DNA of 63,634 nt, counting the filler, from Hausera hauseri (taxonomy: Eukaryota), in assembly GCA_046269625.1 (NCBI GenBank). It is 12 parts of 12 records of this genome, joined end to end, with 100 filler letters (N's around TTAATTAATTAA, not from the genome) between each part and the next. Parts side by side here need not be neighbours in the genome. Positions count along the whole stretch, not along the records: positions 5,562 to 12,326 come from JBJURY010067884.1; 11 more parts are not named here. One strand, written 5' to 3'. Position 1 is the stretch's first letter. Each line of letters opens with the position of its first letter. Shown piece by piece: positions 3,001 through 46,882 of the stretch. The notes below the pieces were generated by a model, which worked only from the letters and a program-made list of their open reading frames with translations, was not told the origin of the DNA and ran no database searches. A program made the translations under genes and the position numbers.

Positions 3001-5461
3001 GTTTCTTTAATTTTCTCGGCGCATAAGCAAATGGATGTTCCTTGCCGTCTTCGCCCTTTTGTGATAATATCGCTGCTACTCCATAATCGTTTGCATCCGT
3101 TACCAGTATGAATGGTTTAGTCATATCTGGATAAATCAGAATGGGGGCGTTCAATAATTTTTCTTTCAGGTCCCCGAAGGCCTTTTTGCACTTACCTGTC
3201 CATATCACCTTTTCTAAGTCTTCACGTAATAATTCATATAATGGTTTGGCTATCTTACAAAAATTCTTTATGAATCTTCGATAATAATTTGCGAGTTCTA
3301 AAAATCTGCATAATTCATTAACAGTAGTGGGTTTTGGAAAATCTTTAATTTTGTTCAATAGTCTATCTTGAGGTTTCATAACGTGTCCGAGAAAGTCAAC
3401 TTCGGTTTGAGCAAATGAGCATTTCTTCAGGTTTATGTTTAAACCCATTACTTCACATCTATCAAAGAGTTCTTGCAGGCCCTTAAAATGCTGTTGGAAA
3501 TCCGATGATGCTATGATTACGTCATCGATATATACCATAACATGTGGTGCATCTAGAAATAATAATTCTGTTCCTCTTTGAAAAGTCGGGGGCCCATTCT
3601 TTAAACCAAATGGCATTCTATTGAATTTCCATAACCCTTCCCCTATGGAAAAGGCCGTTTTCGGCTTATCCTTTACTTCTATTTGCCAATATCCTTTCTG
3701 TAGATCAATTGTAGTGAATATGGTTGAGCCGTGCAACTTTTCGAGTATTTCATCAATCCTTGGTAGTGGATGTGTCTGTTTCCGTTATTTCGTTTAACGC
3801 TCTATAATCTATACAGAATCTCATAGCTCATTCTTTCTTTTTCACCATCACTACTGGAGCCGTCCATGGGAAACAGCTGAGCCGTATTATTTTGTTTCCT
3901 CTCATTTCATTTATAATTTACGAGCTTTTTCATTTTTGTTTTATGCCAGTCCGTATGGTCGCTTCTTGACGGGTTTGTTTTGTCACTCTTTCAACTTGAT
4001 CACATGTTGTATTACGTTCATTGTTTCTAAATCATAATCATTTTGAGCGAATCGGTTATTGTTTTTTTCCAACAACTGGATGAGCATTCTTCTTTCTTCA
4101 CTGGATATATTACAATCTTGTAGCATTTCTTCCCAATTAATGCGAGTAGTGTCTTTCTCTATATTTTTATTCAGCCTTCCTCTTAATTTCTTTATCGTCA
4201 ATTTCGAAATCTCCTCCACTTCGGAGATCACCTAATTGATAGTTTCTTTTGGTACTTCTTCGACATCTATCACTTGTCCAAGTCTCGTATTCTTTCTCAA
4301 CCATTTTTCCTTAGTTTCTGTATTAAAAAGTCTTAGATGAATTTTCTGTCTCTTATCCTATGTACATATGGTGCGACAAGAATGTCATGTTTCTCCATTA
4401 TTTGCGGAAATGGTTCAACGTGTACATAATTCGTTAATGGTCTGTATTCTATTTTACCGGGTACTACTACTTCAGAACGTGGCAGAATTATAACGCCTTT
4501 AGTTAGTGAGACTGATCCTTCATATTGATTTTCGTTAAACATTTTGAGTTGGCCAGTTTTGACGTCTATATACACGTTGTCTAATTGATGCAATACATCG
4601 CATCCAATCAGTATTTCATTAGTTAAATTTTTAGCCACTCTTATGGTATGGTTTATTGTCTGGCCACAGATTTTAATTTTTGCATCTAAAACCATCTTTA
4701 TCTCTTCCTCCATACCAAATGCTCCGACGTTAATCAATGTTTCTTCCGGCTTTCGTAATTTACTCACTAATTCTTTGGGTAATTGGCTTTTCCCCATTAT
4801 TGTGGTAGTGGATCCCGTATCTATTAGGGCCGTTAAAGTATGTCTATGTACATTGATGTCTATTTCTTATCTCAATGCCGACTGGAGCCCGTTATTATCG
4901 CTCGTTTTGAACGTAGGCTGACGACTATGTGGTGCTGGATTTTCTTCGTAATCCTGTTTTAGGCGCAATACCTCATACGTGGGACACATTCCTCCATGTT
5001 TCACATATTGAGGAGCTGATGGACTTAACATTTGTTCATTAAATATTTGTTTGTGATATTTGTCTGCAGAGTCTAACTGAGGTAAATCAGTAACCAGTTT
5101 TTGTTTATACTTCTGTCTTCCTGATTTTAATGAAAATCGTCCCAGTTTTCTTAAATTTCTAGCACTTCTAAATTTGATATTCGAATCATTTTAGTCCTCA
5201 TCATTTTTATCGTTTAGAGTACTATATGGCGAATTCTTCTCGATATCGTTATTTCTTTCTTTAAGTTTTTTCCTTTTCCATCTTACGTCATGATTTGCTA
5301 GGAAACAACTAGCAGCTGCTGGTATTACCGCTATGACGATTTTCGATAAGCATCTGACTGCTGCATGTATTCCGTAAGCTTTACCAAGTGCAATGAATAT
5401 CGTCCATAGGGCACTGATGATGAAATATATTGCTAATAATCCTGAAGTAGCCTGACCAAAA
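1..5461 (-). mobile_element. Decayed Ty3/Gypsy LTR retrotransposon pol (PR-RT-RH-IN) with in-frame env-like 3' extension; no LTR within contig
   Basis: Protease LIDTGS (~4810-4825); RT (MPFGLKNGP, VYIDD; ORF 2957-3736); RNase H (LVTDAND, YTDH); integrase HHCC (YHDG..GH..CDSCKLC) and core (DYFTRW, HPENN..VER). Several stops and frameshifts. Confidence 0.93.
6..1365 (-). pseudogene. env-like extension fused to integrase: signal peptide, Cys-containing ectodomain, FN3-like modules, RYKR furin-type site
   Basis: ORFs 996-2027, 693-926 and 6-311 are all in one frame, separated only by point stops. Signal-like AFKYLCLLVLLGIPGLLA at ~1305-1362; RYKR/S at 462-473; FN3-type DLSPNTKYTITLQLY at ~258-302. 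Confidence 0.6.
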
Positions 5462-5561
5462 NNNNNNNNNNNNNNNNNNNNNNNNNNNNNNNNNNNNNNN
5501 NNNNNTTAATTAATTAANNNNNNNNNNNNNNNNNNNNNNNNNNNNNNNNNNNNNNNNNNNN
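5462..5561. other. Artificial contig-joining spacer (first of 11)
   Basis: Exact 100-bp N44-TTAATTAATTAA-N44 (stops in six frames). Repeats at 12327, 16836, 21399, 26445, 35420, 42337, 46883, 51042, 55121 and 59420. Confidence 0.99.
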
Positions 5562-8200
5562 AATGACATCCTGCACAGCCTTACCAACACTAACACGTAC
5601 TCCACAATTGACTTGCATAAAGCATATCATCAAATTCCTGTTACACATGATAATATTCCAAAAACTGCTATTATTACTCAATTTGGCTTCTACGAATATA
5701 TATTTATGCCATTGGGTTTACGTTGTGCTTCTCAAACTTTCCAACGGCACATTCATACCGTACTGTCAGGCCTAGACTTCGCCCATCCATACAATGATGA
5801 CATATTAGTTGCCTCTACGTCTGCCAGACAACATCAAGAACACCTTTGTATCATCTTTCACAGATTACATCATAGCAATTTGCAAGTCAACTTCTTCAAG
5901 TGTCATTTCTTTCAAAATCGTGTTAATTTCCTGAGTCATGTCATCACTCCTCACGGCCACTCTCCACAACCAGATCAACTACAACAATTGAAGAACATAA
6001 CTTTACCAACCACTACCACAGACATGAGAAGTTTTTTAGGAACACTCCACTTCATCCACAAATACGTACCGCATTGTTCTGAGCTTGCAGCACCTTTCGC
6101 ACATCTATTATCCGAAAAAAAGAGGCAATTGATCCACTGGACTCCTGTTTTGGTAACCAATTTTTATCACTTGCGCGATGGTCTTAAAACGGTAGAAATA
6201 CTGGCTTATCCGAAACTCAAGGCAGATCTTATTCCTACAACCGATGCCTCAACGACAGCTACTGGCGCGGTACTACACTAGGTCTCTAATGGCGTCGACG
6301 AGCCATTAGAATTTTATTCTAAGAAGCTTAAACAACTCGACAGCCGTTACTCCACATTTGACCGTGAGTTACTGGCCATAGTTCTGGCAGTAAAACACTT
6401 TAAACACTTACTTCTCTCTCGTCCATTCGTCATTCAAACTGACCATAAACCTCTGCTGCACATCATGTCGTTAAAAGAGCCATCACCGAGGCAAGAGAGA
6501 CATATTTCATACCTTTCTACGTTCAGTTTTACTTTGGAATATATCTCAGACACGGATAACTTGGTAGCTGACTTTCTATCGAGGTGGGTTGGATCCATTA
6601 CAGTTCAGCCGATTTTCTCATCTGAAGTCTTAAAGTCCAATCAACTATCTGCTGATTTCCTCAGTTCCTTCAAATCCTACGAGATCATTGATGTAGTAGC
6701 TTTTGATACATCTAATACAGGTAATAAAAAGGTCATTCTAGCACCACCTTTACAAAAACCAGCTTTTGTTCATACGCATTCACTCCATCATCCAGGTTCG
6801 AAAGAAACCTTTCGCCTGCTTCAACGTCATGTAGTATGGCCATTAATGCGCAAAGATGTACAGGACTGGGTTAAAGAATGCATAGCCTGTCAAAAATACA
6901 AGATCAACGAACACTTTAAACTACCACTTTACCACTTTCCCTGTACATTACGCTTTCATACAGTTCATCTTGATTTAGTTGGTCCTTTACCTGCCGACAA
7001 CGGGTATCAACACATATTTACTATGATGGATCATGCTTTTCGTTGGCCTAAAGCCGTTCCTCTTCGTTCGACAAACACAGATTCAGTAGCAGACGCTTTT
7101 ATTAAAATCTGGATCAGTCGCTTTGGTTCCCCACGCTACATAATAACGGATCAAGGTCCACAATTTGAGTCTGAGCTTTTCAAACACTTGTCAAACGTTT
7201 GGGGATATCCCATTTTCACACTACACCATATCATCCTCAAGCAAACGGCCTTTTTAAAAGGTTCTATCGTACAATGAAAGTTTTATTAAAAATCTTGGCT
7301 GATACTAATCGTAATTGGACGTCCATTCTACCATTTGTTCTACTAGGTTGGCGCAACACACCTTGGACAACTACCGGTTGCACTCCAGCCGAAGCACTCA
7401 TTGGGACTCCAATTAGAGCCTTATTTGAGCTTTCTGATCTTGACGACAATCTTGCAGACAAAACCATTCGTGCAGCACAATCTCACTTCGTAGAGGTCAG
7501 CTCAGATTCTTTCTGCCGCCTCTTTAATAACAACAAATCCTGCATTCCGAAGGATTTATACTGCGCCAAGTTTGTGTGGTTAAAAGATCAATCTCCTTCT
7601 GGTTTTAGACCTTAATATGTTGACCCGTACAAACTGCTGAATCTTTCACCTCACACAGCAACAATCTTACGCAAAGGTAAACCGTACAACGTCCACATTT
7701 TGAATCTGAAGCCTGCCTTTTTCAGTGACGATATTTCTGGTAACAATTCTACATTCAATTCAGACTCGGCTAGCACTTCTACTGACTTTCTAAACGATTT
7801 TGCGCCGGTGCAGCAATCACTACTCGATTACACTCAATCATTATCATTTCTTCCATCCGTCTCACTTCACTCTCCATCATCATGCTCACAACCTTCATCT
7901 ACTTTCTTGCTTGACTCATCTTTGCTATCATCCCCATCACAAAATATCACATAACAGCCCAGCGCAAATCCATCGAGTAAGGTACGTAGAGTGACATTCA
8001 ATACGTACAGCAGAGAAAAGTTCTTTAATGGCACACAACGCCTGACCCGTACTAAAATTGAATATGAACCAAACCTTATTCTTTGTTGCGTTTCGTTGTT
8101 GTCACTCGTATTATCTTCATCATTCTTTTTTCATTACATAGCTTCTTTTCTGCCGCGCGGGGGGGGGTTGATGTGGTGCCGTGGTCGTGGGGGCGCTCTG
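5562..8200 (+). mobile_element. CsRn1/Kabuki-like Ty3/Gypsy pol (RT-RH-IN), copy A, with PPT and start of 3' LTR
   Basis: KAYHQIP, MPLGLRCASQTFQR, YNDD (defective YxDD); TTDAS; HSLHHPG..CIACQ; VHLDLVGPLP, TDQGPQFES, YHPQANG; S/T/P-rich tail. G-run PPT at ~8159-8167, then TGTGGTGCC at 8172. Confidence 0.92.
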
Positions 8201-9067
8201 TTTCGTCACCAGATTTGCAAATCATCATTCTCCAATTTCTCTCAATCAATACGAATCCTATCGGCAAACACTGATTATGAAATCAAGTATAATCAGATCA
8301 AATCAATCAACCGATGAATGCAATTCTACTTCAATGCAAACAGCATAATATTTACTTTTCTTCAACATTGAAGCCAATCCGACGAAAGATACCTGTCCCA
8401 TAGGTTACTGCTACGCCAGTACCTATCAATTTTATATCAGAACAGCGAGTGAAAAGAACTGTTAGAATGACGTATGAGATCCATGAACGCGAAATGGATT
8501 TGGAAATGTATTGAAGAATTGTGTAGATTCTGCTGAGTCTTGATGAAACCTGTAATTGAAATAAAAAATAATTTTAGACAATAAATGTAGAAATATGCTC
8601 ATTCGATATGGCCATTTAAGTTCCTACAGTCATATAGCCAGAAATTTAAAGGATTTCATTAAGCTCCCATTGGTGAAAGTAGCTATGATGATTTCAACCG
8701 ACATTCAAATGAAACCAAAGAAACGTTTGATTCTCTGACAATTGAAGCAATTAGGGCAAAAGCGTAGAAACGAGCTATTCATCAAGCACCAAATGCATTT
8801 CAGGACCGTAAAAAAAAATTCGATGCACTTTGATAATACACTTTAATTATTATGCACTTCTTTAGATGAATTTTGTAAATGACTGTCGTTTTGGATTTTT
8901 TTAATGTGATATGTTTCCGTTATATTTGTTCGTTATGCTGTTTAATGACGACAAATTGTTGTGTGGTAAAACATAAGATAATGATTAATTGATTTTTTCG
9001 AAGTAAACAATATAACATATTACCGTAGAGACTTTTTTCTTTTTAATTTCTGATTTTTGCTTATCTC

Positions 9068-11069
9068 ATGATGATAGAACCAAATTGGTGTCAGAAATAC
9101 AACAGTAATGTGGATACTCAACGAGCATTGTCAATCTTTTATAGTTTACGAAACGAATTACAGAAAACATATGACACGCAGAAATTGAAGCCAATCAATC
9201 AGATTGCAGCTATTTTTGAAATTTCTTCCTTTTCGAAAATTGTTGGTATCCATAAATTAATCAACGATTTACAACAGCACAAAAATTTGAAACTGGATGA
9301 TATTCAAGTTAATGAACATTGTACTATAACTATTTCAAAAAAAGTGTCGATTCAAATGACAATTCACTTTCTTTAGAAACAATTTCACCCCATCAAACTC
9401 TTGTTTTTTCCGTAAAATGCACTGGAATTTTTGTTGAAAATATTTCAAATGATTCACGCTTTAAAGCATTTGAAGACAAGTTCGATCATTTACGTGACCT
9501 GAACATGAGTATTAAAACCGTACCATTTTGGATTGACTTAATAATGGGAAATAACGTTTTATTAATAGTTTTTCATTTTGCCAAAAAACTGGATGTAGCC
9601 ATTAAACATATTGATATTTCAGTATCTGTTGCACAACTAATAATGAGTCTGAAATATGCGTATACTGCTGCAATTGTTGATGGTTTGTTATTGTCAACTT
9701 ATGAAAATCGATTCATATGGAAATTATTATCTTCCTTGCCACAGTCGCATGCATTTTTGGTAATTTCGTTGATACATACTCTTCTAATATTGATATTTTT
9801 AGCAAATTACATCGGTGATTGTTTCTGTACTGATTTTACCTGTTTCTACTCTAATACAATATCTATTATATCAATGATTCTGGCATATTTATTTGCCAGG
9901 GGTGAAGGATTAAAACATGTTTAATACATTATTTACCAATATATTTCACATTTACATCTGAGTTTTATTTGTATGCATCTACCGCATTTTTTGGTTTTCT
10001 TAATTTTTACTTGTTTCCGAAAGCTCTGAATGAACGTCAATCGAGATTTGGTATTTCACCAAAGTTTGTTTACTTTTAGTTTTTCCGATGACTTTAAATA
10101 CCTCCTGATTATTGTTATGTGTCAATATTTAACAACAATACCAAGTTTTGTTGTCAGCAACGACAGACCAATTGATTTTAGTTACGTTGTCAGCAATGCA
10201 TACTGGACTTGTACATCAAGTTTTGCCCTTTTTACGCATTCACCATATGAAAAAATTAAATTACATCCAGATGATCACGTATGTCATGATAAAGGCTGTA
10301 AAAAATTCCAGTTAAGCAGCTGTATGAATTACATCCACATCAGTATTCATACGAATCAATTTGAAAAAACTGGCCAAATTTACTTCTTATTTTCATTGAT
10401 CCCTGTAGAAATTCTGATTTTGATTCTAATAACGTAAAATTGAATTGTGCCACTGCCGTTATGACAGTATTTTTTCATACTCCCAGATATTCTGAGGAAG
10501 AATATCAATATAAAAACTTGCGAAGGCCTAACCGATTACTTTTTGAATCAGTTACCAGTGACTTTTTTCGCCAGAAACTTTCGAGAAAAGTACCTTTTAA
10601 TCCTCATTATTGTTTTGAAAGTTCATAGTGGCGATTCACCGTTGGGGCACTCAAATCCTACCTCTCATTGCTCGACCAGTTCCGACGAAATAACACAAGG
10701 TAATTATGACAGTTTTTCATACACTCAATCATTTAAATTATGGGACGAATATAGACTAATCCGCTTAGTTAGTCTGTCTTCCTCAATCAATTTTTTAAAC
10801 TGGTTGCCCAACGTTTATGCTTCATATTTTGGCAAACCAGCTTTACGTATTGTACTATCATCTGATAATATTGAATTTCGCGAAATTGACTTTAAACGGG
10901 TGAAACCGACTGCCACCTTAATCTAAATGGTCACATTGCATCGGTTTTTCAACTGTCCATCTCTCAAAAATCATGTTTCATAGCCAGTGGCTGCAGCAAC
11001 GGTTGGATTAATGTTTGGCACATCAAAAATAGCTGCCTGTTAATCCATCGTTCAAATTTAGACAAAAAT
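9068..11069 (+). pseudogene. WDR81: Degenerate, internally reduced BEACH/WD40 protein, WDR81-like
   Basis: LKLDDIQVNEH resembles the WDR81 N-terminal region; PFWIDLIMG matches BEACH WIDLxFG; WD40 segments SFKLWD..LSSDNIEFREID and LNGHIASVFQLSISQKSCFIASGCSNGWINVWHI (10923-11025). Frameshifts present. Confidence 0.55.
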
Positions 11070-11270
11070 ATGACAACTGTATCAATTGGTGAACTCAATT
11101 TGCGACCCACCATTTCAAAACCAAAATCACGATTCGCAATCAGTGAATGTTTGAAGTTGTCACCGCTTACAATGTATCGAAGTACTGGTCTGCCTACGAC
11201 GATGATCACTCATACAAGGGATTCTCTGGTTGAGGGCCCGGGCGTGCCCGCCCCCGTTGCGCCATGTCCC

Positions 11271-12326
11271 CTTTCTTTTCTCATCTTTACTAATACTAAA
11301 CATGTCCACACATTAAGGGTTACACATAGACAAACAGCTCATATTCTTTATACTGAATTGTCCTCTTATTTCGGCTCCTCTGGTTTTTATCTTATGCACA
11401 ACGGTCTAACTTTGCAACCTTACAACTCTTTCATCCTTTGCACCCGAGAAATACTCCATCACTCTCACTGTCCATTTTCGCATCCGTGGTGGATCAAACC
11501 TTGACCCTTCTACCGAACACTTAACAAAAACTAGATCTGGTCGTCATCCTGTCGACACCACACCAATAACTTCTCCAAATCTCCCCTGCACGGATCTTTT
11601 TCTAAACAAGACAAACTCTAGTCGTACCTGGCTGCAGTTCCATTTGCAATGGCTTAAAGCTAATCATATTACAGATCCCTTTCTGCGGGCTAACAGTTTT
11701 CTGCTATGGCTCCCAGCCAATTTGGCTGACATACTCTCCTCTTCAAGCCCGTATGATATGCTGTACGGATCGGTTCTACATATCACCTTCCCTTCCATCG
11801 ACAGCATAATCCAGAAGTACTTTAACGAACACGCCATTGGAAATTAAAAACTATCGGATTTCCTTAAAACGACCATCTCACAACTGAGCTTTTTAGGCGT
11901 GACTCCGACGAACAATGCTGATCTTCTTTGTCGGTACTTTCTCTCATCTCTGCCAACCTCCATCCGAGCGCTGCTTACTGCAGTAGATAACTCTACTGCC
12001 CTCGAAAAGCTCTCCTTATTGGCAGACAAAAGCTTTGATATTCTGCAGTCCAATAACTCGCAGCCTGTAGCCGCAGCAACTACTCATACACTGCCAGACA
12101 ACACTTTATTTGCACAACAACTAAACATGATGCAGAAACAATTCAATACCCTCCAACAAGCCATTTCTGCAATCACAGCCCAACTTAGTGACTTATCCGT
12201 GCCTCGAGGAAGTGAAAATCGTATTTCTCGCAATCGCAGTCTTTCCAGGCACTCTTCTCGTTCTAAATCTAGAGATGGTAGAATGACGTGCTTTTATCAC
12301 AACAAATTCCGCAAAGATGCAAGGAA
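11271..12326 (+). mobile_element. Ubiquitin-like domain-Gag fusion (copy 1)
   Basis: LIFTNTKHVHTLRV..FYLMHNGLTL, one frameshift, then TLTVHFRIRGG ending 11493. Continues in frame with Gag (SSRTWLQFHLQWLKAN, LLCRYFLSSLP, LEKLSLLADK) and the start of a CHCC knuckle (CFYHNKF). Confidence 0.85.
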
Positions 12327-14063: not shown

Positions 14064-16835
14064 TCACGAGTTTTCAAATTTCTCTTTCTTTTCGTTGTCT
14101 TTGGTATCACGGTCGACATTCTTCATTGCAAAATGACTACAGCCTCGTTGGATTCGTTTATTTTTATGCGACGGTCGAAGTTGAGAGCTACTAATCGTAG
14201 ACGTTTGTACTTCTCCGTCTTCATCAGGACTAACAAGAGCCTGTGTTTGTGAATGCTTAATGTCGTACTGAGTCTTCGTCGATTTCAATGAAGTCGACTC
14301 TGTCTGCAAACCAATACTTTGTAAACCCGATGCATTTTGATATTGTTCAAGAATATAGTTCAAACCTCGGTTTTCGACGATTATTTCAAATAAACCATCC
14401 GTTCTAGAAACTTGGACCTCCTGTTCTTTAACAAATTTTAATTTGGTCATTCTCTGATATATTTCATAAATCTCTTTATCATCGAAACAAAATTCGAATT
14501 CCGTTTGGTTTCCTGACTCTCGTAAAGTCGTTCCGTTCCAGCTTTCAGTTCTTGAATTACACATTTTAGTTCGGAAATCGGTAGAGACAGACGAAAATGC
14601 AGATTCTTCCTTTCCATCTGCGAAATCATTCGAAAAATTGGGAAGAATTTCGTGTTTTGTTGTAACTACCGATCGCGATTTGACACATTCGAAAACGAAA
14701 TCTTCTTCGAAATTAGCTTCACTGCTTATTTCGTTGAATAGTTTGGAGTACGTTGAATGATAGTGCTTGGTACGTTCAATATTTGAATTTGGAGACAGAT
14801 TTGAAGTCGATATCAGAGGTTCGTAACTGGTGAACTGAACTCCGCGATCAGTCTGTTCTATAATCGTTTGAACTTCTTCGTTATATTGTTGTGGAGCATA
14901 TATCTGGGTGCCCATATTTACTTTCTCGACGAACTCAGCTGTCGAGGTTGTTTTATCCGTTTGTATCGATTTTAGTCCCGTATGTTGTCTACTGGGTGCT
15001 TCCAAAGAATCTTTCTCGATCAGATTTACGTTCTTTTGAGTCAGTGGTTCAATGGTATCTTCATTTACACTACCAAATTCGAGATTTTTCGCTGAATCAA
15101 CACCGTAACGTATCCAGTCCTTTTCTGTTAACTCCGTTTCGGTGAGTAAAGAAGCAAATAGTTTACTGTAATTAGATTCAATTATTTTTGGTGCCAAACT
15201 AATATCGATATCTTTTTCGTTAGATAAAAGGATCTTTTCATCACTTTCCTTTAATCTACCCGTTTTTTCAACTCCTGCAGACTCTGTGGATTTTAAGTCA
15301 ATAAACTTGGGTGCAAGACTAATTTCCATAGGCTCTTTTTCATCCACAACTAGAGTTAGCTGTTTCGTTTGGTTATCAGGAATCTCGCTAGAATTCACAC
15401 TGTCAAATTCAAACAATTTATTCGTCACGGTTTTATCGGGTTTATACCACGCATATCTGTCTATCAGTTTTGATTCAGGTTTCAAATTAGCACATGTTAA
15501 TTTATTACTAAATACTATTGCCTGTTTAACATTTTGCCGTACAAAAGTATGTACGTTACTGTCCTCTTTTTGAATTTCAAACACTTCATAGGTACCACGC
15601 TCGTGAACCCTCTCAGATGCTATATCTACTTGCTTGTTGAAGTAATTCAAAAACAAATGGGCTTCTTCTGCGGGTTTACACACCTTAGGAGATATCTGTA
15701 AAGATACCGAGTGGGACAACACTTCAAAGGTCTGTGTTTCTTGTTCTTTCCAACGTAGATCAGACTTTCCATGGTCTAGTAACATATTACATTGAGCGCC
15801 AAAATTCGACAGAGGTGGTGAAAAACTGAACTCAGTTGATATGAATTTTTTATCTTTATTCAAAAAACTACGATTGGTACCAATACCTGAATCAACAAAG
15901 GTACTAGAATCTCTAAACGAATCGCCATCACCATAGTCCGACATAAATCCTGGCAAATGAGATGCAGAACTTCCAATAACGAGATAATCCAAGGGGTCGA
16001 CTTCTTTACGAATGCTACTACCGGTGGGTTTTAAAACATATTGAATATCTTTATCAATAAGATCAGACGACAAATATTCATGGTCAGTTTTATTACGCAA
16101 ATTAATATTACCCACTGCGGTCAAAGTTGTTTGATTCAACTTACTTTCCATTGGAGTATGAGAATCACATCCGGTATCAACGTCATCACTAAGTCTTGTC
16201 AATCCGACTTGAATGTCCTTTGAAACTGAAGGACCCACAACCAAACGAAGATCTGACTGTACTTCGTTGTCTACGAATTCTTTTATATCGATATCAGGTG
16301 ATGCACGTTCTGCTTCTATGAATGAACTTCTTATTCTTTCATCAATTTCGAATGTCACATCCGTCTGGCATACCTTCTCTGAAATCATGTGACCCACTTG
16401 ACATAAAACATCCACATCTTTGAACAATTTCGATGAACCAACTTGCAATTTCTTTCCCTTTGCTTCTTTCTTTGTGTCCTCTAATTCATATTGAACATCT
16501 TCATCAACCAAACCAATCTGAATTGGCGCTAATTCTCTTTCACTTCTCAAAGGTTTTACAAATTCTTCTTCCACTTCTGTCTGACTGGAACTGCTTGTCA
16601 TTGATGTATCAGACCCGCAACCAACATCAACATCATCATTAAGTCTTGTCAATCCGACTTGAATGTCTTTTGAAACTGAAGGACCCACAACCAAACGAAG
16701 ATCTGACTGAACTTCGTTGTCTACGAATTCTTTTATATCGATATCAGGTGATGCACGCTCTGCTTCTATGAATGAACTTCTTATTCTTTCATCAATTTCG
16801 AATGTCACATCCGTCTGGCATACCTTCTCTGAAAT
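14064..16835 (-). CDS. Large intact exon of an acidic, S/T-rich, probably disordered repeat protein with many LC8-type TQT-like motifs
   Basis: 914-codon uninterrupted ORF that stays open to the contig end; recurring QT-type motifs (SQTE, CQTD, ETQT, IQTD, VQTI, NQTE, LQTE, VQTS). Confidence 0.85.
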   Translation of the reverse strand: MSEKVCQTDVTFEIDERIRSSFIEAERASPDIDIKEFVDNEVQSDLRLVVGPSVSKDIQVGLTRLNDDVDVGCGSDTSMTSSSSQTEVEEEFVKPLRSERELAPIQIGLVDEDVQYELEDTKKEAKGKKLQVGSSKLFKDVDVLCQVGHMISEKVCQTDVTFEIDERIRSSFIEAERASPDIDIKEFVDNEVQSDLRLVVGPSVSKDIQVGLTRLSDDVDTGCDSHTPMESKLNQTTLTAVGNINLRNKTDHEYLSSDLIDKDIQYVLKPTGSSIRKEVDPLDYLVIGSSASHLPGFMSDYGDGDSFRDSSTFVDSGIGTNRSFLNKDKKFISTEFSFSPPLSNFGAQCNMLLDHGKSDLRWKEQETQTFEVLSHSVSLQISPKVCKPAEEAHLFLNYFNKQVDIASERVHERGTYEVFEIQKEDSNVHTFVRQNVKQAIVFSNKLTCANLKPESKLIDRYAWYKPDKTVTNKLFEFDSVNSSEIPDNQTKQLTLVVDEKEPMEISLAPKFIDLKSTESAGVEKTGRLKESDEKILLSNEKDIDISLAPKIIESNYSKLFASLLTETELTEKDWIRYGVDSAKNLEFGSVNEDTIEPLTQKNVNLIEKDSLEAPSRQHTGLKSIQTDKTTSTAEFVEKVNMGTQIYAPQQYNEEVQTIIEQTDRGVQFTSYEPLISTSNLSPNSNIERTKHYHSTYSKLFNEISSEANFEEDFVFECVKSRSVVTTKHEILPNFSNDFADGKEESAFSSVSTDFRTKMCNSRTESWNGTTLRESGNQTEFEFCFDDKEIYEIYQRMTKLKFVKEQEVQVSRTDGLFEIIVENRGLNYILEQYQNASGLQSIGLQTESTSLKSTKTQYDIKHSQTQALVSPDEDGEVQTSTISSSQLRPSHKNKRIQRGCSHFAMKNVDRDTKDNEKKEKFENS
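16191..16835 (-). repeat. 450-bp (150-aa) period coding repeat
   Basis: 16191-16385 is nearly identical to 16641-16835; the contig ends inside the repeat. Confidence 0.95.
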
Positions 16836-16989
16836 NNNNNNNNNNNNNNNNNNNNNNNNNNNNNNNNNNNNNNNNNNNNTTAATTAATTAANNNNNNNNN
16901 NNNNNNNNNNNNNNNNNNNNNNNNNNNNNNNNNNNTAAATGTTATATCAAACAAAGTACTTATTGTTTTTTACGAGAGAGTAAATTATA

Positions 16990-18790: not shown

Positions 18791-19010
18791 AATAGGGGAG
18801 AAATGGGGATTCTAACCCACTCCCGGGGGTGTGCGCGTCGATAAATCGATAGTGCTAATCGATAATGCACACTGTGCACTATCGATCTATAGTGTGCAAG
18901 GCGACGGTGCCGCTAGGTACCGTTGCTAAGCACATTTTTGCACATTTGACAAATCGATCGCTGTATAGTGGAGCATTTATCGAATCTATTGGGACAAAGT
19001 GCTAAACTCG
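18788..19010 (+). repeat. Polinton-associated terminal/ATCGAT-rich repeat, homologous to 50119-50320
   Basis: Shares CTAAGCACATTTTTGCACATTTGACAAATCGATCGCTG and flanks with the contig-9 copy. Confidence 0.75.
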
Positions 19011-19019
19011 TACGGGATC

Positions 19020-30000: not shown

Positions 30001-32215
30001 AGAAATTCGGCTTCGACGGCCTGCCTACGACAAGGTGATAGTGGTCGTACCTTTTTGTGTATTGGCCGTTTAGGCTGTGTAATTATGTGATGTACAGTGC
30101 TGTTTGCAGGAGTAAACGTACGATCTTTTTTGAGTGCTCGTGAACATGATTTGTTAACGAATTGCTGTAAAGTTGTAGGCAACTGTGAGAGATTCGGTGA
30201 TGGTGATGAAACAGCTTGAGTAATAGCAGCTGCAATTTGTGAATTGTTTGGTGATGTGCAGTCAAGTGGTATTTGGTGCAATAAGGTCGAATTGAAAATG
30301 GTGTTGGATGCAGTTATTTCGTCAAGTGAATTAACGTTGGTGACAGTACCACAATTAACGACATCGAACCTCGACTGAATGTCAGTACTATGATTGAAAA
30401 ATTTTCGAAATAAAACATTGTTATGGAAATTCGAATTAGTTTTTGATTTTCTCAAAACTGATATCCGCGTGTCGATCGACTGCGCGGCAGCCGAAATGCT
30501 ATTTATATGCTCAGTAACGCTGCCAGTTATACAGCTCCTGAGACATCGTTGACTGCAGTCAATCAATAAATTATAATGTGATAGGAAATCGGACCCTAGT
30601 ATTGCCGTTTGGACGTTAGCAACTGTGAATGTCCAGTGGAAAGGTGAAGGAAATTTTGGTAAGATAAAAGATAGTTTAGTCATGCCAGAAATGTGCAGCA
30701 TTTGACCTGAAGCGGTGTATAAGGATTTAATTCTGAATGGTGAATTTTGTACAGGAAAGATTGTGGCAATAAGGAAATCGCTGCACCTGCATCAATGAGG
30801 AAATAAACGGATTGCGTTGTAGGAGCGGTGATTGCAGCCTTTAGAGTAAAGATGGCAAAAGAGGCGTGTAGGCATTCAGAAGGTGTAGTAGTGCCTTTGC
30901 CAGAGTTTGCCGTGACTTCTAGCTGAAAATTTAGTTTTGTTGAAAGGATGAACTAAGACGACTATTAGAAGAATAGGTGGCACGTCCTTTGCTCGTATCT
31001 GTTTTGAAAGTGCAGCCTAAAATGCATTTACGAGCTTGTTTTTAAACTTTGCATGGTAGATGCAAACAACGGTGTCTGAGAAAAAACCTTTATTATAAAA
31101 TTTGCATCCTAGGCAGCATTTTTGGCACTTTTGTTGAATCTGCTGTGTATTATAGCAGATTGACGACTGCGCAGGCGATGGCGGCCGGTTTCTAGATGCA
31201 GAATAGGCGACGTCAGAGACAAAATCCATTCGACGGGACAGGAAAAGTTCATTTAATTTGTTGTTAATGTTGTTAATTGTTGCGTGTAGTGCTGTATTTT
31301 GGCACGTAACTGATTTAGCTGTTGCTCTATTCATATGTTGTTGCTTTGAATACCATTAGCAGCAACTGCCACCGAAAGGATTGGTGGGTAGTTTAAGTGT
31401 AGAACGTCGTGTGTCTTGTCGGCTAATTTGGCCAGTTTCAAACGAGCGGTAAGTAGAGCCAGAATTTGGATGGGTAACGCGTTGAGGAAGTAGTGGCGCA
31501 GTAGTTCTGGGTTGTGTTCTTTAGTGACGCCGAAAGTGTGTATATGTGGCGAAGAAGTGCGTAGAAGGTTTGACAGTCGTTGTGTGCCTATAGCATTGTC
31601 GTGAAAGAAGCGTTGTATGATCGTATCCATTGAGGGTTCTGTGATTTCAAGAACAGCGTTGAAGAGTTGTGAATATGGATCAGGGAGTTCGAAGATTTCA
31701 ATAATGTTGTGAATTCATGTTTTGATATTGTTAGGTAGTAAGACGAGGAGGTTATGTGCTTTAGCTAAGGAATCGGTAACATTATTGGCTTGTAGTCACA
31801 GTTGGTGGAATTGCAACCAAGTTTTGCTGGAGCCTTGGTTGTCGATAAAGAATTCAGTGCAGTGAGGGAAAGGAGCGGAAGAGGTGGTAGGCGAAGGGTT
31901 ATTAGCAGAAGTAGAAGTGGGTTTTTGAAGCAGTATAACAGATTTTGGTTTCGTGGTGGTTTTATCCGTGGTGCCTATGGTTGGCGACGAATTCGTGCCA
32001 CCACGGATGCGGAAGTGTATATGGAGGTGGATATAAGTTGAAGTAAATTGTAGGGTTTCAGGGATAGGTACTGTAGAGCCATTGTATGTGATGTAAAATT
32101 CAGATGAACGAAGAATAGTGCACATGGCGTTGTAGAAATCTGTAGTGTTTACGTGTGTTGGTGCAATAGTGTAAATATGTTTGTTATTTAAAAAAGGAAG
32201 AGCGAAAACAATGTG
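26933..32215 (-). mobile_element. Near full-length CsRn1-like Gypsy (copy C): Ubl-Gag (2x CHCC)-PR-RT-RH-IN-PPT-short LTR
   Basis: Ubl ending HFRIRGG at 31997; Gag 31996-30990; protease FLIDAGA ~30790; RT (SKSPWSSPLH, MPFGLRNATQTFQR, YIDN); RH; integrase ORF 27263-28564; PPT GGGGG at 27085-27089. Confidence 0.93.
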
Positions 32216-32376
32216 GATGTATAGCCAGGTGCGTGTCGCAGGGCGCCAGCGAACGATGCCGTCCGACTTAATGGCATAGGCTGAGCGGCCGGGACTTCAG
32301 CTTAGCCGTAGCGGATCCCAAACTTCTGTGTGACCGTGTTCCGTGCATGCAATGTTTCTTCATCAGTATTTTTATT

Positions 32377-34050
32377 TTACACATATTTTGCAATATTGCC
32401 CATATTAGAACCATTTCTCAGATTATCCAGAATTGGTTCTTTAAATGAGACTGAATCGGCCCTTTTACATTCACAGTGAATGTAAGAATATCTCTTATAT
32501 TTCACGTAATATTCCTCAGTCTCGGTCTCCTTATTTTCTGTAGGATAGGGTAAATCAGATTCACTAACAACAAGAGTGCCAAGGATTTTGGGAATAATTT
32601 TTCTACCGCTATTCAGATTGGGGCGGAAATCGAATCGAGATTTTTATTACTGCTGCTTGATGACGAATCATCCATTAACTCCGCGTCTGCGTTAATATCT
32701 TTTACACGTTTTTTAACCTTATTTTTTCGGGGTCTTGTTTCGAATGTTTTGGCATCAAATAGGGATTGGTCAGCAGTCGATGGATGTGCAGTATGCTGGA
32801 TAAAATATTTAATTTCATATTTACAAATTGGACAATATGGCATTGTATTTGCTTGGGATCGAGCTCGATCTACACAATATAGACATAGCATGCGTAGGCA
32901 AGGCGTAAGTCTGTACACTACATTGAGAATTACTCGGCATTCCATACATTCTGAGAGATCTGAAAATAAGTAGAATTAATTGAGATTTAATTCAATTGTA
33001 TTAAGATCTATACAATTATTATTGTCTTCAATATACGGTGAGGTCGACAGATAGTTATACAGTCTAAGTAGGTGAGCTTGTACTAATTGTGAAGTACACG
33101 TAGGAATGATAGTGGTATATAGTAATTGCTCACTTAAACGAATTATGAGTATGGGGTTTGTCGAGAAGTTTGCAGCAATAGGTTGACGGCTAAGATTGAA
33201 GAAGCCATTGGTATTACTAATAGGCAGCTTATAGAGCATAAGAGTAGATCTAGTTGTGTTGTTTTAATGAATCTATACTTTAGTATATCTTGTATGAGGG
33301 GTAAGAAGTCTTCATTTTCGATTTTATTTAGGGTACGTTTGTCGGTTATGCATGTAAAGGGTGTTCTCCAGTCGATGACTTTATGCCTGGGGTACATTTG
33401 TTTCTGTAATAAAATTTCACCTTTATAGTCTAGTATAGCGATATCAATGATGGTTTGCTTAATAGTTGTAGGATTAGATTGAGTTGTGACGTAATTATAG
33501 GATACGAAGATGAATAGGAGTTCTAAATCTGATAAAGATAACCCTTCTGGTGCTGAAATGTACTCATTTACTGGTAAAAGTGGCTTGGGTGTATGTACTG
33601 ATTGGATATAGTCTTCATTGTGGGTGTATATACGTTTTGGATGAATTACTTCCACAGCGTATATACAGTTGGTTAGAGAAGAAATGGTAAAAGATAATAA
33701 TTCCACAGGAGGAATAATGATAATCACGCTAGAGTTATCAAGTAGGTCGTGATTAATATCAAAAATTGGATCATTATAGTTAATACTGATAGTCAGCTTG
33801 CCACTGGTGAGATGAATAGCAATGATATCGACCTTTCATGGTCGGTCGATAAGGACCAATTGGAATAATTAATTGTTTACGTCGGTTAACGTTTGTTGAA
33901 TACACATTTGTCTGGGATAGAGTTGGAGTTTCTCAGACTTTAGGTTATTCGGAATAGCTGTTTGATTAGGGAAAATGCGATACAATTGATTTACCCTCAA
34001 GTAAGACGCCAGTGCTTCATAAAAAGTTTGTGATTCAATATAGGACTCCA
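32377..34050 (-). pseudogene. Multidomain accessory ORF: unknown N-domain, catalytically dead DEDDh exonuclease (REX4/ISG20-like), RING finger, CHD-type chromodomain
   Basis: ORFs 33869-34147 and 33143-33727 share one frame; 32976-33239 and 32613-32945 share the next. Motifs IDIAILDYKGEILLQKQMYPRHKVIDWRTPFTCIT; CMEC..PCLRMLCLYC..CPIC; IIPKILG..EEYYVKYKRYSYIHCE (32467-32598). Confidence 0.7.
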
Positions 34051-34298
34051 TTTTCAGCTTTAATACGAAACATAATGATAAAAGTTTATTTACATGAATT
34101 GAATGTAAATTACACAAAACAATAGCATGCACTACTATATTAAGCATGAATTATATACAATGGTCATAAGATACAGAATGTCAATAGTTATTTGAGATAG
34201 GGAATGTCAGTGACAAGATAACAATAATATACAGAATTAAATAGTCATATCAGAATATATACACACGTATAGAAAGTTAATAAAATGTCTAAAAATGT

Positions 34299-35419
34299 TT
34301 ACACCACGATTTCTCGGCGCACAGTAGCTAATAGGCGTTCATGTTCGAAGGAGCTGATCAATAAGTCACGTATCAGAATGTCACTGATTGTTAGGTTTCG
34401 ATAATTGTGAGTCTCTGGATGAATATCTGGTCGTCGCATCAGGATGGAAACTGATCCATAGGTTCGAGTCAAAAGCACAGTTATAAGGGGAGTCTTCTCA
34501 CATGAACCATGAGCATAGGTTACGTCAAATCGGTAAGTTCCGTTATCGAATTTCTTATTTAGGAAGGTTTCCAATAGGAGAAATTGTTTGAATACTTTTG
34601 CGTGATGTAATGGTGTACTACGTAATTGTGGTTGGAAAATGGCTTGAAATACTTTGTTATCGTAGGCATAATCGAATATCTGTATTGCAAGGTTATGTCG
34701 ACCATGGCGTATAACGAGTAATAAGGGAATATCCCCATCTACGTTAGGTATGTGTAAAGGTGCTTTTGTTTAAATGAGCATGAGTATAAAAAAAATCATG
34801 ATATTCACTCATAATGGCTAAATGAATGATGGTATTGCCATTTGAATCTTGGAATTTTAGCGTTTCCTCTGCTTCATCGCCTAATTGAGTTATAGCTTCT
34901 TTAGCTCTTTCTTCGCTTCTTGATGCTACTGCTAGCATTAATGGAGTTGTTTCAGCGGTATTTACTGTTGTATAGTCTATTGGGTCAGCTGGTAATTGTT
35001 GCTATAATAAGTATGACGCTGATTGGTACTACTATGACGATTAGCATAAATAAATTATAATTTATTTGAAATTGTGGTATTGTTTGAACTGACAGTGATA
35101 TGATACTCAGCGTTTCATTGCCTTTGGGAGAATTGGTAGATATTTTAATCATAAATTTTCCTTTTTTCATTATTTTATTGAGTGTTGGTAATTTAAATTG
35201 AATTTACTCCCCTTTTGGGCGTAGTGACTTCTAATAACGCGATCGTTTTTGGTTTTTGTAATAGGTCATAATAAGGTAACTGAATATTGGCTAAATAAGG
35301 ATAACCAGATATCAATTTTGTGCATTCAACGTACGTACTGGTAACTAGACAACAGCCGTCGTTAGTATTTTTCAATATAACGATAAAGTCAGGATTTGGC
35401 AAGCTAAACATTACAAGGT
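34299..35419 (-). pseudogene. Receptor-like protein: FN3-like ectodomain, TM helix, ankyrin repeats
   Basis: TM LFMLIVIVVPISVILIIATI; ankyrin ETTPLMLAV, NGNTIIHLAI, DGDIPLLLVI, KTPLITVL. The FN3-like motif CTKLISGYPYLANI is weak. Confidence 0.55.
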
Positions 35420-43197: not shown

Positions 43198-44400
43198 TCA
43201 GTTAAAGAATGTGCAACCTGTAACGCAGTTCTGTGCTTTAGAATTGAATTTATTTTGGTAAATTCAGATAATATAGGATCTTTTGAAATGGGGAGCATAA
43301 AATCTGCAACCTAAGCAGCATATAGTCGAGTTGTTTTTGAATTTGGTGTGGTAGTAACACACCAATGATCGTGTAGGTGACCTTGCATGCCTTGAATTTT
43401 GAGACAAAGTGCTGCTATGGTTCTCATCAAAACGATTTCGTCTAGGCATGGTCAAAGCTTCGATTTTTGACGTGGGTGCAGAAATTGCTTGATATATGTT
43501 GGCGTTTTTGGAACGTAAAGAATTAGCTATATCGCTAGCTTGTTGAGTTGTTGGTGCTTGTAACATAGCGGCTACTAATGGGGCCGTATGTGCATGTAAT
43601 ATCTGTGGCTTTTGTCAGCCAATTGTGCTAGTTTTTGTAGTGATCATGTGCACTCTACTATGGTTAGCAGCGCACGTATGTCTCTGGGTAAAGACAGCAG
43701 AAAATATCTGCGTAGTAAATCGGCGTTGTTTGCTTGATTAACGCCTAGAGTACTCAATTGAGTTAATGAGGTCTAAAGAAATTCTGAGGGTTTCAATGTG
43801 CCTATGGTGTTGTCATTAAAATATTTGTGGATAATGTTATCCAGAGATGGTTCCGTGATTTTCAAAATTGAGCTAAAAAGTGTTTCATATGGGTCACTGC
43901 TTTGGAAAATTTCCGATAAGTTGGGAAGCTGCGACTTAATGTTGGAAGGCAGAAGTATAAGCAAGCTGTTTGCTTTAAGAAACGAGTCGACAATATTATT
44001 TGATTTCAACCAAGCCGCATGAAAGTCCAACCACGTCCGGCTAGAGTGTTCCTTGTAGACGAAGTATTCTACTCAAGGTAGATTTACAGTAGACGACGGA
44101 GGTAGAGGTGAATTTAACGGTACACTTTTAGTAGGAATATCGGCAAAGTCCTGTTGGTCGTTAGATGAGGCTTTTGGATCAGATTCACCTGGCAGACGGT
44201 AGTGTACGGTGAGTATAGGTGTTGAAGATGAGTGGGTGTAACTTGTTAGTGTCGGATTGTCGGAGAAAACTTCCATTATAACTAAGGCGGAAATTAGCGA
44301 GGGTTGTTTGTCGTTGTAACACATCAGACACTGTTGCAATTGTTGTTGATTTGTGTATGTAGTAGGTCTGTGTATGCTTGTTTCGAATAAAAAGACAAGT
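43198..44400 (-). mobile_element. Ubiquitin-like domain-Gag fusion (copy D), pol absent
   Basis: CLFIRNKHTQTYYIHKSTTIATV..FRLSYNGSFL, frameshift, then ILTVHYRLPGE (GGT GAA at 44184-44189); Gag SSRTWLDFHAAWLKSN; two CHCC knuckles. Confidence 0.85.
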
Positions 44401-44798
44401 GGGACAAAATTGCCACATAAGTGGGTGTGCAGTGTGGTGCATAAGACAGCGGCGCGCCCAAAATCCCTGCGATGTAACAGTCGATTTGCGCGACCTGAGT
44501 GGTAAACACTAGAAAAGGCGTCCTGTTTGGTTGATGTTTGACGTCTGTTTCCTGTAAACTTTGTAAATGTCTTTCCATAAATTCCTTCTGCATCGACTCA
44601 GCCAGCATGTCTCCAACCGACGATGTAGTACTGGGATGTTTACCACTGGCATTAAGGTAATTCTGGAGAAATTGTGAACTGTTCTCAAAATAAAAGGCAA
44701 TCAATTCTTCGGATAAAATTATGTTAATAATTTAGTAGATTCATTAACATATGTATAAGAAATATGAAAAATTCACTGACCTTTTTTATGTATACCTT

Positions 44799-45560
44799 TT
44801 AATCATCTGAGACTCCAATGATAGACTCCGATAACGGTTGACATAATAATGCATGGTAATTGATGAAATCAGAAAAATCATCCCACAATAAGAACGTTGT
44901 ACTGACGGCGCTTTTATAGACTATTTGAATAAGTTTTTGTAGGTGGAGATTATCGAGATACGGATGTAGAAATGAGAATAGATCACAAAGTAATTGCTTG
45001 TAGAACTCCTGTGTGTATTCCATTGTTATATTATAGAGCATTTTGGAAATGAACTATCGATGGGAAATGAGTTCTAATCATGAGAATACGAATGATGGAG
45101 CACATTTTAGTCTGATGACATTACAGTTATTTGAAAATGCAGTCAGAGCATGATATTGGAACTCTACCATTTGTTCTTCATCATCAAGATGCTGTCTATG
45201 ACATTTATAAATGAGACTACATACTAACATTGCATAAACATCAATTTCCAGATATCCGGCACTACGATTTACTATGAGTAATGATTTCAATTGTTTATGT
45301 GCTCGATCAAGAACGTACATTGATACTAATCGTAGGAATCTCACAAAGACCTCATCATTATGGGTAAGTTGATGTTGCGTCATAGTGTTGACAACATTTT
45401 GTACGGCAACATTTCGTTGATTACTTGAGAAATTACTCTCCATTCATAGACGCAACATAATTTCGGCCTCCTCTGCCATTGATGGTGGCTCATCAAATCC
45501 CCGTGACGAACTAATTCCATTGTACAAATAAATTGATGACGGCGATCTCTTCGGACAACG
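44799..45560 (-). pseudogene. CNOT1: CCR4-NOT subunit 1 C-terminal domain fragment with internal deletion
   Basis: Three same-frame ORFs: FDEPPSMAEEAEIMLRL*, DEVFVRFLRL, ALTAFSN..CAPSFVFS*LELISHR*FISKML, YKQLLCDLFSFLHPYL..DFSDFINYH. These match CNOT1 DPPGLREKAEYLLREW, APGFVYAWLELISHR and QLLIDLFKYLAPFL. Confidence 0.85.
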
Positions 45561-45600
45561 ATTACATAAATGCGTTGGAGCATTTATTCGACAAAGCATA

Positions 45601-46882
45601 CTCCAGAGTATTTTTAATAAGATGCTCAAGAGCCTCGTGATTTCTGTGATTAAAATGTGCCAACATCTCATTAACTGCTCCTGAAACAGTGTCGCATTTC
45701 CTTTATTTTCTTTTTAGAATGACTACCGTGGTTTCCTGCGTGAAGTTTTGAATGTTGTGAAGAGTTTGTTTAATAGGGAGAGCATTAGGAGTTTCTGTCT
45801 TTTCCTCAGCTTCCTCAAATGCATCGTCAGGATTCATGATTTCATCCTCTTCGCCACACATATTTATTAGTTCATTCACGGATTTTTCGACATTATGTGA
45901 TTTTGTCTGGAGTATTTTTGCAGTCTTGATACACAGTTCCTGAGTGCGATCTACGAATTCATCAACTGCCACCGGGATATAATTGGGCAATTCTCATAAT
46001 TGCACATTACTAAGGTCTTCAAGAACCAAACCAATACGATACGTTCTGAGATCCCTGACGCGATCAAGGAGTAATTCCATTTTCGTCAGACCTGCATACA
46101 CAGAATTTGTGTATTCTTGTAATTTCGTGCTTGTCCAGTTATTCGTAGTAAGACCCGGCTTGATTATTCTTTTCAGTTTGTTCATCTTCAGTACCATAAG
46201 TGTTTCGTATTCGGGTGGAATGCTATTGATCACATATTTGATATGGTCCACCATTAACGTCAATTTATTGTGAAAATCTTTTAATGCTGTCTGTTTAAGT
46301 TTCAGATTTATGGCTGCAGGGGAAATATCCATATTTAGTTTAATCATAAGATCTGTCTCTCTGGCCAGCGTTAAAATATCGGGATCAAATATGACAAAAA
46401 GTTATTTTGTCTCCGGATGACGCACGATCAAAGATGACTTAAGACCGGCATGAGTTGCATTTACTTGACGGACCCAAGCTTCATGGTATACAAGCTCAAA
46501 CGTCATTAATGTTTCCGCAAGTTTGTTGTAGTTCTTTACAATTAATCGACCTTCCGTGATTTGCAACATTGCTGAATGTTCTCGATTGAATAATTTCATT
46601 GGTTCTTCAATACATCTAAACAAATGTCGTACCCATGCAATTTTGCCGGCGATTGGTGGATCATCTTTCTGTCGTGTATAATGTTTCATTAACGAATCAA
46701 GGTCACGTTTGTAATGGTTCATTATCTTCATATATTTATCTTCAATTCCCAGATCTGGTATATTTAGCTTTTCAAACCATCTCAACATCTGAAGAGCTCG
46801 TGTTGTGTTGTTTACCCGATCAAATATTCCATCCATAAACGCTATAATGCTATTATGAATGTCTTGAATCTGTCGAGTAAAA
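45601..46882 (-). pseudogene. DNAH5: Axonemal outer-arm dynein heavy chain (DNAH5/DNAH8-type) tail fragment
   Basis: Same-frame ORFs with 3 stops: FEKLNIPDLGIEDKY, PPIAGKIAWVRHLF, YNKLAETLMTFELVYHEAW, VRHPET, PGLTTNNWTS, LLDRVRDL, HFNHRNHEAL..NTLE. About 7 aa are deleted between two PP motifs. Confidence 0.88.

Follow-up and report, generated by a model that had tools for sequence, protein, structure and literature searches.

A candidate cleavable ubiquitin-like domain between host-type coding fragments and Gag in a CsRn1-like retrotransposon family of Hausera hauseri

The capture of host sequence usually cripples a long terminal repeat (LTR) retrotransposon or adjoins the element's own genes. 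LTR-mediated capture of mRNA pieces, two-gene cases included, is common (PMC5131818; the sources cited by PMC number here and below are represented by excerpts), and the extra frames of rotifer and plant elements lie mostly after pol (PMC5408684, PMC7264820, PMC6338049). The accessory domains of Burro elements are encoded in frames of their own in one species and belong to the polyprotein in a second (PMC6431247). The CsRn1 clade has a CX2HX9CX3C knuckle as its signature (PMC2582038). Among host proteins, the divergent ubiquitin-like domain (Ubl) of SDE2 is cut after Gly-Gly by USP5 (PMC13572447), and products with a di-Gly end are removed via KLHDC2 (PMC8013793). The locus described here lies in a window from Hausera hauseri (the whole stretch of DNA analysed, 63,634 nucleotides) and is best read as a decayed CsRn1-like retrotransposon, in which an Ubl stands right before Gag and a WD40 repeat of host type reads into the Ubl.

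The window consists of 12 contigs joined end to end by 100-base artificial spacers (N44-TTAATTAATTAA-N44), and contigs adjacent in it are not genomic neighbours. Four Ubl-Gag copies are present, A on contig 5562-12326, which also holds the frame 10896-11504, and B, C and D on other contigs. The contig of copy A opens with decayed pol and a polypurine tract; variable sequence of about 3 kb separates these from the Ubl, and Gag then fills the rest of the contig. The preferred reading, to which we assign a probability of roughly 0.55, is that copy A is a decayed copy of a CsRn1-like family whose active copies made a polyprotein of cargo, linker, Ubl and Gag, a host deubiquitinase cutting after Gly-Gly. 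This idea is better supported for the family than for the junction in copy A.

The family-level evidence comes from database proteins. A profile search of 1.84 billion protein representatives gave 4 matches, from which cluster look-ups and two word searches led to 10 proteins in 7 clusters; the end of the Ubl is reached by 8 proteins in 5 clusters. P0016 (900 amino acids) comprises a CARM1 fragment (expectation value, E, 4e-80), about 75 residues, Ubl and Gag, with 473 residues before the Ubl. P0009 (996 amino acids) and P0013 (1051 amino acids) comprise a DIS3L1 N-terminal fragment (E 2e-25), about 70 residues, a CNOT1 fragment (E 7e-15), about 80 residues, Ubl and Gag, with 626 and 628 residues before the Ubl, respectively. 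These two proteins come from two contigs, and their alignment has 16 differing positions, among them an indel of two residues; the P0009 contig, with 3554 bases for a 996-residue product, leaves little space for introns. Recognised host cargo is in frame with Ubl-Gag in 2 of the 5 Ubl-bearing clusters, and in both of the 2 that are at least 50% identical to copy A Gag. Some member has at least 90 residues before the Ubl in 4 of the 5; P0010 and P0015 have 90 and 128, with no recognised domain. No stop interrupts the CARM1 fragment (P0016 residues 215-375), although its motifs deviate at several positions from those of rat CARM1; selection for nothing but an open frame would be expected to leave such a pattern. 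P0017 is a Gag fragment. Comparison of the linkers of the relatives gave no significant likeness, a comparison of linkers as translated LTRs gave no support, and no related loci were found in JGI metagenome contigs and IMG/VR. An exact-sequence look-up of 8 window frames in the protein collection retrieved none of them.

The Ubl is, by profile alignment and predicted structure, a beta-grasp ubiquitin fold with Gly-Gly in register. A profile built from 8 Ubl members covers ubiquitin residues 2-76 and pairs the two Gly-Gly ends (single-domain E 3e-4). The AlphaFold model of the P0016 Ubl, made from an alignment that includes window rows, has a predicted local distance difference test score (pLDDT) of 71, and Foldseek with this model recovers ubiquitin, ISG15 and SUMO at a template modelling (TM) score of about 0.7 and 14-24% identity. 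The best Pfam match of the Ubls is Sde2_N_Ubi, which 2 of 8 members hit below the cut-off (E 5e-4); a single-sequence PDB search with the Ubl gave no ubiquitin match, and the single-sequence fold of the copy B Ubl (pLDDT 33) is unusable. In copy A, the P0009 Ubl is matched by amino acids 123-183 of the frame (E 3e-10). The Ubls share only 16-46% identity with the first sequence of the alignment, and Gly-Gly is kept in all 8 database proteins that reach it and in 3 of the 4 window copies (11/12).

By analogy, the domain is likely a host-cleaved release site for Gag. It is improbable, although the low identity to ubiquitin and the Pro-Gly end of copy C would fit, that the polyprotein is real and the Ubl no disposable linker, staying on Gag or acting itself as a deubiquitinase decoy or as a modifier carrying the cargo. 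A Ubi2/SUMO-like domain also lies inside the Burro polyprotein, for which the excerpt reports no cleavage (PMC6431247). Against such a role, Gly-Gly is nearly the sole fixed feature and directly precedes a disordered linker and Gag, and the equally divergent SDE2 Ubl is cleaved (PMC13572447).

In copy A, the initial annotation had described a frame open from 10896 through a WD40 repeat and linker to the N-terminal half of the Ubl, and 10896-11504 (+) is indeed a stop-to-stop frame of 202 codons with this content. The repeat (amino acids 6-41) matches Pfam PF00400 at E 8e-4, below the curated cut-off; a PDB search matches the frame to WD40 proteins (best E 5e-12), and the ESM Atlas gives WD40-plus-NLE clusters at 0.89-0.90, a lead only. 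A search with the frame among proteins of 355-2000 amino acids yielded 0 of 176 candidates. Over the 79 codons of the linker (11028-11264) the WD40 frame has no stop, against 5 and 4 in the other two frames, and dinucleotide shuffles are open in that frame with P 0.024 and in any frame with P 0.087; the chance of in-frame joining is therefore below the 1 in 3 first allowed for accident. The GC-rich family core starts near 11200, with depth and contig counts climbing at 11192-11237 and 73% GC at 11222-11270. The absence of an LTR or recognisable primer-binding site between WD40 repeat and Ubl, also noted at the outset, was confirmed: the post-polypurine-tract sequences of three window elements exceeded the shuffle maximum in 0 of 12 comparisons with the DNA upstream of the four Ubl copies. 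With 2 mismatches allowed, the primer-site pattern published for CsRn1 has 2 matches in the window (5.7 expected), none of them upstream of any Ubl.

The proposed cargo-Ubl-Gag polyprotein gains support for the family, in which P0016, P0009 and P0013 are single predicted proteins, but not for copy A. Copy A encodes no polyprotein today, because it has two frame breaks, a stop in Gag and its first Met past the WD40 repeat, and these defects weaken the case for this junction. One break lies just before the repeat, where the upstream frame is 10465-10926, and the other inside the Ubl near 11425, which puts Gly-Gly (11488-11493) and Gag in another frame; the Gag stop is at 11845, and the first ATG of the frame 10896-11504 stands at amino acid 59, downstream of the repeat. 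The leader points the same way. Three intact relatives have an HxP motif 8-9 residues ahead of the first Ubl strand. For copy A, the best of 9 comparisons with this motif falls in the Gag frame (uncorrected p 0.011), while a rival register in the WD40 frame, PCPLS versus PRPFS, scores no better than shuffles. The continuity of WD40 repeat and Ubl may therefore cross a shifted junction and its phase, judged from these motifs, may be accidental; on balance the continuity is rather probably original.

Contigs of the runs differ from the window at both frame breaks and at the Gag stop, and these defects are therefore not common to all versions. The frame changes of copies A (11425) and C (about 44260) have the same direction and almost the same position within the Ubl. 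A programmed frameshift inside the Ubl, which this likeness had prompted, was set aside: copy B and 8 database proteins cross this point without a break, and the contigs of both runs differ in length there, so that the two changes are probably independent decay. ATG 11264 was likewise rejected as the true start, being out of frame with the Ubl and lying at a point beyond which the relatives extend.

Other adverse points concern the remaining copies and the relatives. The cargo is in phase in 1 of the 3 window copies with readable cargo (A in, B and C out, all broken in Gag), which is the chance value, and the copy C Ubl ends in Pro-Gly rather than Gly-Gly. In P0011 the Ubl is preceded by just 11 residues, and the P0012 and P0014 sequences begin within the domain. 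An in-frame Met stands 10-25 residues before the Ubl in P0016, P0009, P0011 and copy A, so that Gag could start locally. The relatives are predicted proteins alone, not DNA. Chimeras occur in that protein source, to judge from P0018, in which a bacterial barrel domain, DUF5777, runs in one frame into the C-terminal half of Gag, probably as an assembly chimera. The search that yielded P0016 covered only proteins of 547-1743 amino acids, and a short-protein search, insensitive in that it missed P0010, gave 2 matches without Ubl.

Much of this would suit a reading in which the cargo is passive. The fragments would ride in a leader, Gag would be made from its own nearby AUG, by splicing or by reinitiation, the open frame of copy A would be an accident of decay, and the long database proteins would be the lucky in-phase minority visible to a protein search. 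The in-frame Met close to the Ubl in four relatives or copies, the one-in-three phase, the copy A leader motif in the other frame and the length limit of the P0016 search are all consistent with it, as are the copy B RING frame, which closes with its own stop, and the commonness of LTR-mediated mRNA capture, also from two genes (PMC5131818). Yet in P0009 and P0013 both junctions and both linkers, each about 70-80 residues long, must be open, P0016 adds one more, the copy A linker is open at P 0.024, and no close relative with intact Ubl and short N-terminus turned up in what was a weak search. The phase of copies B and C, in which the leader too is out of frame with the Ubl, says little, because both are as broken in Gag as upstream. 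A passive cargo is thus considered unlikely, if still a serious competitor. The initial idea of interchangeable captured N-terminal domains gains support from the different host fragments in frame in relatives; in the window the fragments upstream of the Ubl also differ between copies, with phase at the chance value.

Upstream of the Ubl, copy B has a RING frame at 32613-32975 (-) (Pfam E 0.015) and two further frames that we take by eye to be exonuclease-like (DEDD) and ankyrin-like, without Pfam match. The frames within 32613-35000 (-) look like separate accessory genes. The dynein fragment of copy C matches Pfam DHC_N1 (E 1e-38 and 2e-18), and 45680-46882 (-) contains about 1.2 kb of dynein heavy chain N-terminal region, with a second host-like frame after it. 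In both copies the DNA upstream of the Ubl is sense, intron-free coding DNA.

This bears on whether the WD40 repeat belongs to the element at all. It could derive from a host gene at the insertion site, joined to the Ubl by a later deletion of the 5' LTR, or be cargo inside a very long LTR in a collapsed or permuted contig. A summed depth in run X1 that is low over 8640-10270, with near-identical contigs, a contig order of pol, polypurine tract, unknown sequence, Ubl and Gag that suits a shared or collapsed LTR, and a primer site and LTR end that could not be placed would agree with either. Summed depth in run X1 is 11-39 over 8640-10267, 302-670 over 10564-11155 and 1546-12202 over 11156-12326; it does not equal copy number, a caution that also counts against the preferred reading. 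Several versions of the WD40-linker region exist in both runs X1 and X2. In run X1, 6-13 contigs have other letters there, against 1-2 at 8690-8835; one run X1 contig has a nine-letter length difference in the linker and a run X2 contig across 10970-11178 has 9 gaps, both compatible with a kept frame. Of nine substitutions with the best support, 4 are silent and 5 are not; most are private to copy A, which makes them uninformative. A joint 10743-11212 in one contig, with a 28-letter side, is too weak to count.

Because several WD40-linker versions exist and copies B and C have sense coding DNA upstream, a one-off deletion of the 5' LTR at copy A, the post-insertion event that could have explained the junction, is judged unlikely. 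No LTR copy lies upstream in any of the three readable copies (over 3.2 kb in copy B, where no copy of its own post-tract sequence occurs), sense, intron-free coding DNA is upstream in all three, and in P0009, as probably in copy A, the cargo combines pieces of unrelated genes; taken together, an origin from LTR deletion or from a long LTR is quite doubtful. Two decayed RING-like Cys patterns were seen by eye at 25790-26140 (+), about 1.2 kb past another pol 3' end on the same strand, for which cargo inside a long LTR is a possibility.

The cargo region of copy A is 94% covered by sense frames of at least 100 codons (9047-11264; shuffle mean 4%). Its 2.2 kb upstream of the Ubl need 6 breaks, or 2.7 per kb, against 22.6 per kb in shuffles, 1.3 per kb in the pol and 1.9 per kb in the Ubl-Gag of the same contig. 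This density is near that of decayed pol and gag and fits a once-continuous frame; some of the six breaks may, to its disadvantage, be out-of-phase junctions. The WDR81 parent suggested for the repeat is unsupported, since no BEACH or WDR81 match was found in any of the four upstream frames, in which decay lowers sensitivity. In the first frame, 9113-9256 has a weak PDB match to DLG1/SAP97, at its N-terminal L27 domain (phmmer E 0.002; no Pfam L27 match), and because of this resemblance the region is probably a mosaic of unrelated genes. An ESM Atlas search with 10465-10923 gave no match.

Under the preferred reading, reverse transcriptase (RT) would switch templates and thereby capture host mRNA fragments between the 5' LTR and gag, and translation would start at a captured upstream AUG and proceed through cargo and linker into Ubl-Gag, so that captures keeping the frame open to Gag would be favoured. 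The first fragment begins near the N-terminus of the host protein in P0009, P0016 and, weakly, copy A. Cleavage by a host deubiquitinase after Gly-Gly would give Gag a uniform N-terminus whatever sits upstream, and the released cargo-Ubl piece, ending in a di-Gly degron, may be degraded.

The element family is best read, from its sequence features, as CsRn1-like Ty3/gypsy rather than as a CsRn1 member, because no Trp primer site turned up. Copy A Gag is 58% identical to P0016 and 51% to P0009. The CX2HX9CX3C knuckle occurs in 9 of 9 relatives scanned (two in 8, one in the truncated ninth), and 4 relatives have a weak DUF7041 match. Copy B has the order Ubl-Gag, protease-like frame (by eye, without Pfam match), RT, RNase H and integrase, which is the Ty3/gypsy order of Gag followed by protease, RT, RNase H and integrase. 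The pol at 5562-7950 matches RVT_1 (E 1e-20), RT_RNaseH (E 3e-20), Integrase_H2C2 (E 3e-14) and rve (E 4e-7) in Pfam and is 64% identical to the copy B pol in DNA; it is either a tandem neighbour or the result of permuted assembly. No second LTR copy was found within the contigs, in which a polypurine tract and a shared TG start are present. The motif TGTGGTGC occurs at 8172 (+) and 27081 (-), its 16-base match alone not exceeding shuffles; the putative LTR from 8172 has a TG start, and its right end could not be placed. No tRNA-Trp primer-binding site of the CsRn1 clade was recovered upstream of any Ubl, in copies that have decayed and whose 5' LTR could not be placed.

Table 1. Coordinates of features of copy A and of the other Ubl-Gag copies in the window.
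Feature	Position	Strand	Remarks
Decayed pol (RT, RNase H, integrase), same element kind	5562..7950	+	Upstream of copy A Ubl-Gag, same contig
Polypurine tract (G run)	8159..8167	+	Read in sequence; copy B: same position past conserved 3' region
Putative LTR start	8172..8640	+	TGTGGTGC common to copy B after its G run
First cargo frame	9047..9376	+	Met at 9068; weak L27-like stretch 9113-9256
Three more long sense frames	9316-9924, 10030-10437, 10465-10926	+	Parents not found by Pfam or other searches
Single WD40 repeat, host-type cargo fragment	10911..11024	+	Pfam PF00400, PDB; frame changes just upstream
Stop-free linker	11025..11261	+	In-frame Met at 11070, 11172, 11202
Leader-like motif PLRHVP	11254..11271	+	Gag frame, not WD40 frame; best of 9 comparisons for copy A
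Ubl first part	11262..11423	+	WD40 frame; BLASTP to P0009 E 3e-10, P0016 E 1e-9
Ubl last part, ends FRIRGG	11422..11493	+	Gag frame; profile match to ubiquitin 2-76
Gag	11494..12326	+	Stop 11845; Cys-His knuckle from 12289 ended by contig end
Copy B	31100..35419	-	Ubl 32206-31997 (Gly-Gly intact) and Gag; pol continues to 27263
Copy C	43327..46882	-	Ubl ends Pro-Gly, Gag; intron-free dynein heavy chain N-terminal fragment upstream, with stops
Copy D	53850..55030	+	Strongly decayed Ubl end (FRCRGG) and Gag

Elsewhere in the window, an open frame end at 26545-26700 (-), past the copy B polypurine tract, is presumably an ANKRD13-like start, without Pfam or PDB match. A second, unrelated decayed gypsy element lies at 996-4866 (-), 25-31% identical to the pol of the copy A contig, and its integrase frame runs by eye into a hydrophobic env-like stretch. 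Frames at 17714-21450 (-) resemble by eye remnants of a Polinton-like capsid and a B-family DNA polymerase, two capsid-like frames having no Pfam match. At 14064-16883 (-) a frame runs uninterrupted for 939 codons and contains a 450-base duplication, and two 21-base repeat arrays in opposite orientation, about 1 kb apart, lie at 40310-40561 and 41413-41769.

If the preferred reading is true, a cleavable ubiquitin fold before Gag keeps up capsid production while host fragments change in the same frame; it would offer a built-in path to exon shuffling and the birth of accessory genes, and would tie retrotransposon biology to host deubiquitinases. A wider and more tentative proposal is that this lineage made gene capture nearly free, in that a host-cleaved ubiquitin fold before Gag accepts any host mRNA fragment, borrows its start codon and releases a uniform capsid protein. 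The element would then continually sample and shuffle the coding fragments of its host, and every fragment would be expressed as an Ubl-tagged product. A full-text literature search, which left aside supplements, Repbase and GyDB records and most subscription journals, found no Ubl-Gag element with exchangeable in-frame cargo.

With the CsRn1 clade (CsRn1, PwRn1, AgCR), the family shares the CX2HX9CX3C knuckle, the order of RT, RNase H and integrase, and the polypurine tract (PMC2582038). It differs in that the knuckle is doubled and the tRNA-Trp primer site was not found, and in having an Ubl with Gly-Gly and variable upstream host fragments, which the excerpted description of the clade does not mention (PMC2582038). 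The giant planarian gypsy elements Burro and GYPSM1 share the combination of a gypsy polyprotein with RING, ankyrin and Ubi2/SUMO-like domains (PMC6431247). In Burro, however, Gag is N-terminal with CCHC knuckles and the Ubl is internal, whereas here the Ubl is right before Gag, the knuckles are CHCC and the cargo varies by copy (PMC6431247). An N-terminal CCHC Gag with the accessory domains behind it is accordingly not what this family has, its cargo and Ubl preceding Gag. LTR-mediated retrocopies and transductions also place sense, intron-free mRNA fragments, sometimes of two genes, inside LTR elements (PMC5131818, PMC7264820, PMC5408684). In the excerpts such captures break up the element, take its place or constitute frames of their own (PMC5131818, PMC7264820, PMC5408684), whereas here they lie upstream of a complete Ubl-Gag and are in frame in several relatives.

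The Ubl insert of pestiviruses serves as a cellular cleavage signal, and host precursors offer a second parallel. SDE2/Sde2, FAU and the ubiquitin-ribosomal protein precursors also have a divergent ubiquitin fold ending in Gly-Gly before a protein that needs a defined N-terminus (PMC13572447, PMC8013793). These are host genes, with the Ubl at the extreme N-terminus, no variable cargo and proven cleavage (PMC13572447, PMC8013793), whereas cleavage in this family is predicted. Cytopathogenic pestiviruses likewise have a host-derived Ubl in a polyprotein, as ubiquitin, SUMO or LC3 inserts between NS2 and NS3 (PMC12908451). Those inserts belong to an RNA virus and are recent, near-identical to the host and acquired per animal, whereas the Ubl described here is old, diverged and inherited, and a fixed part of its family (PMC12908451).

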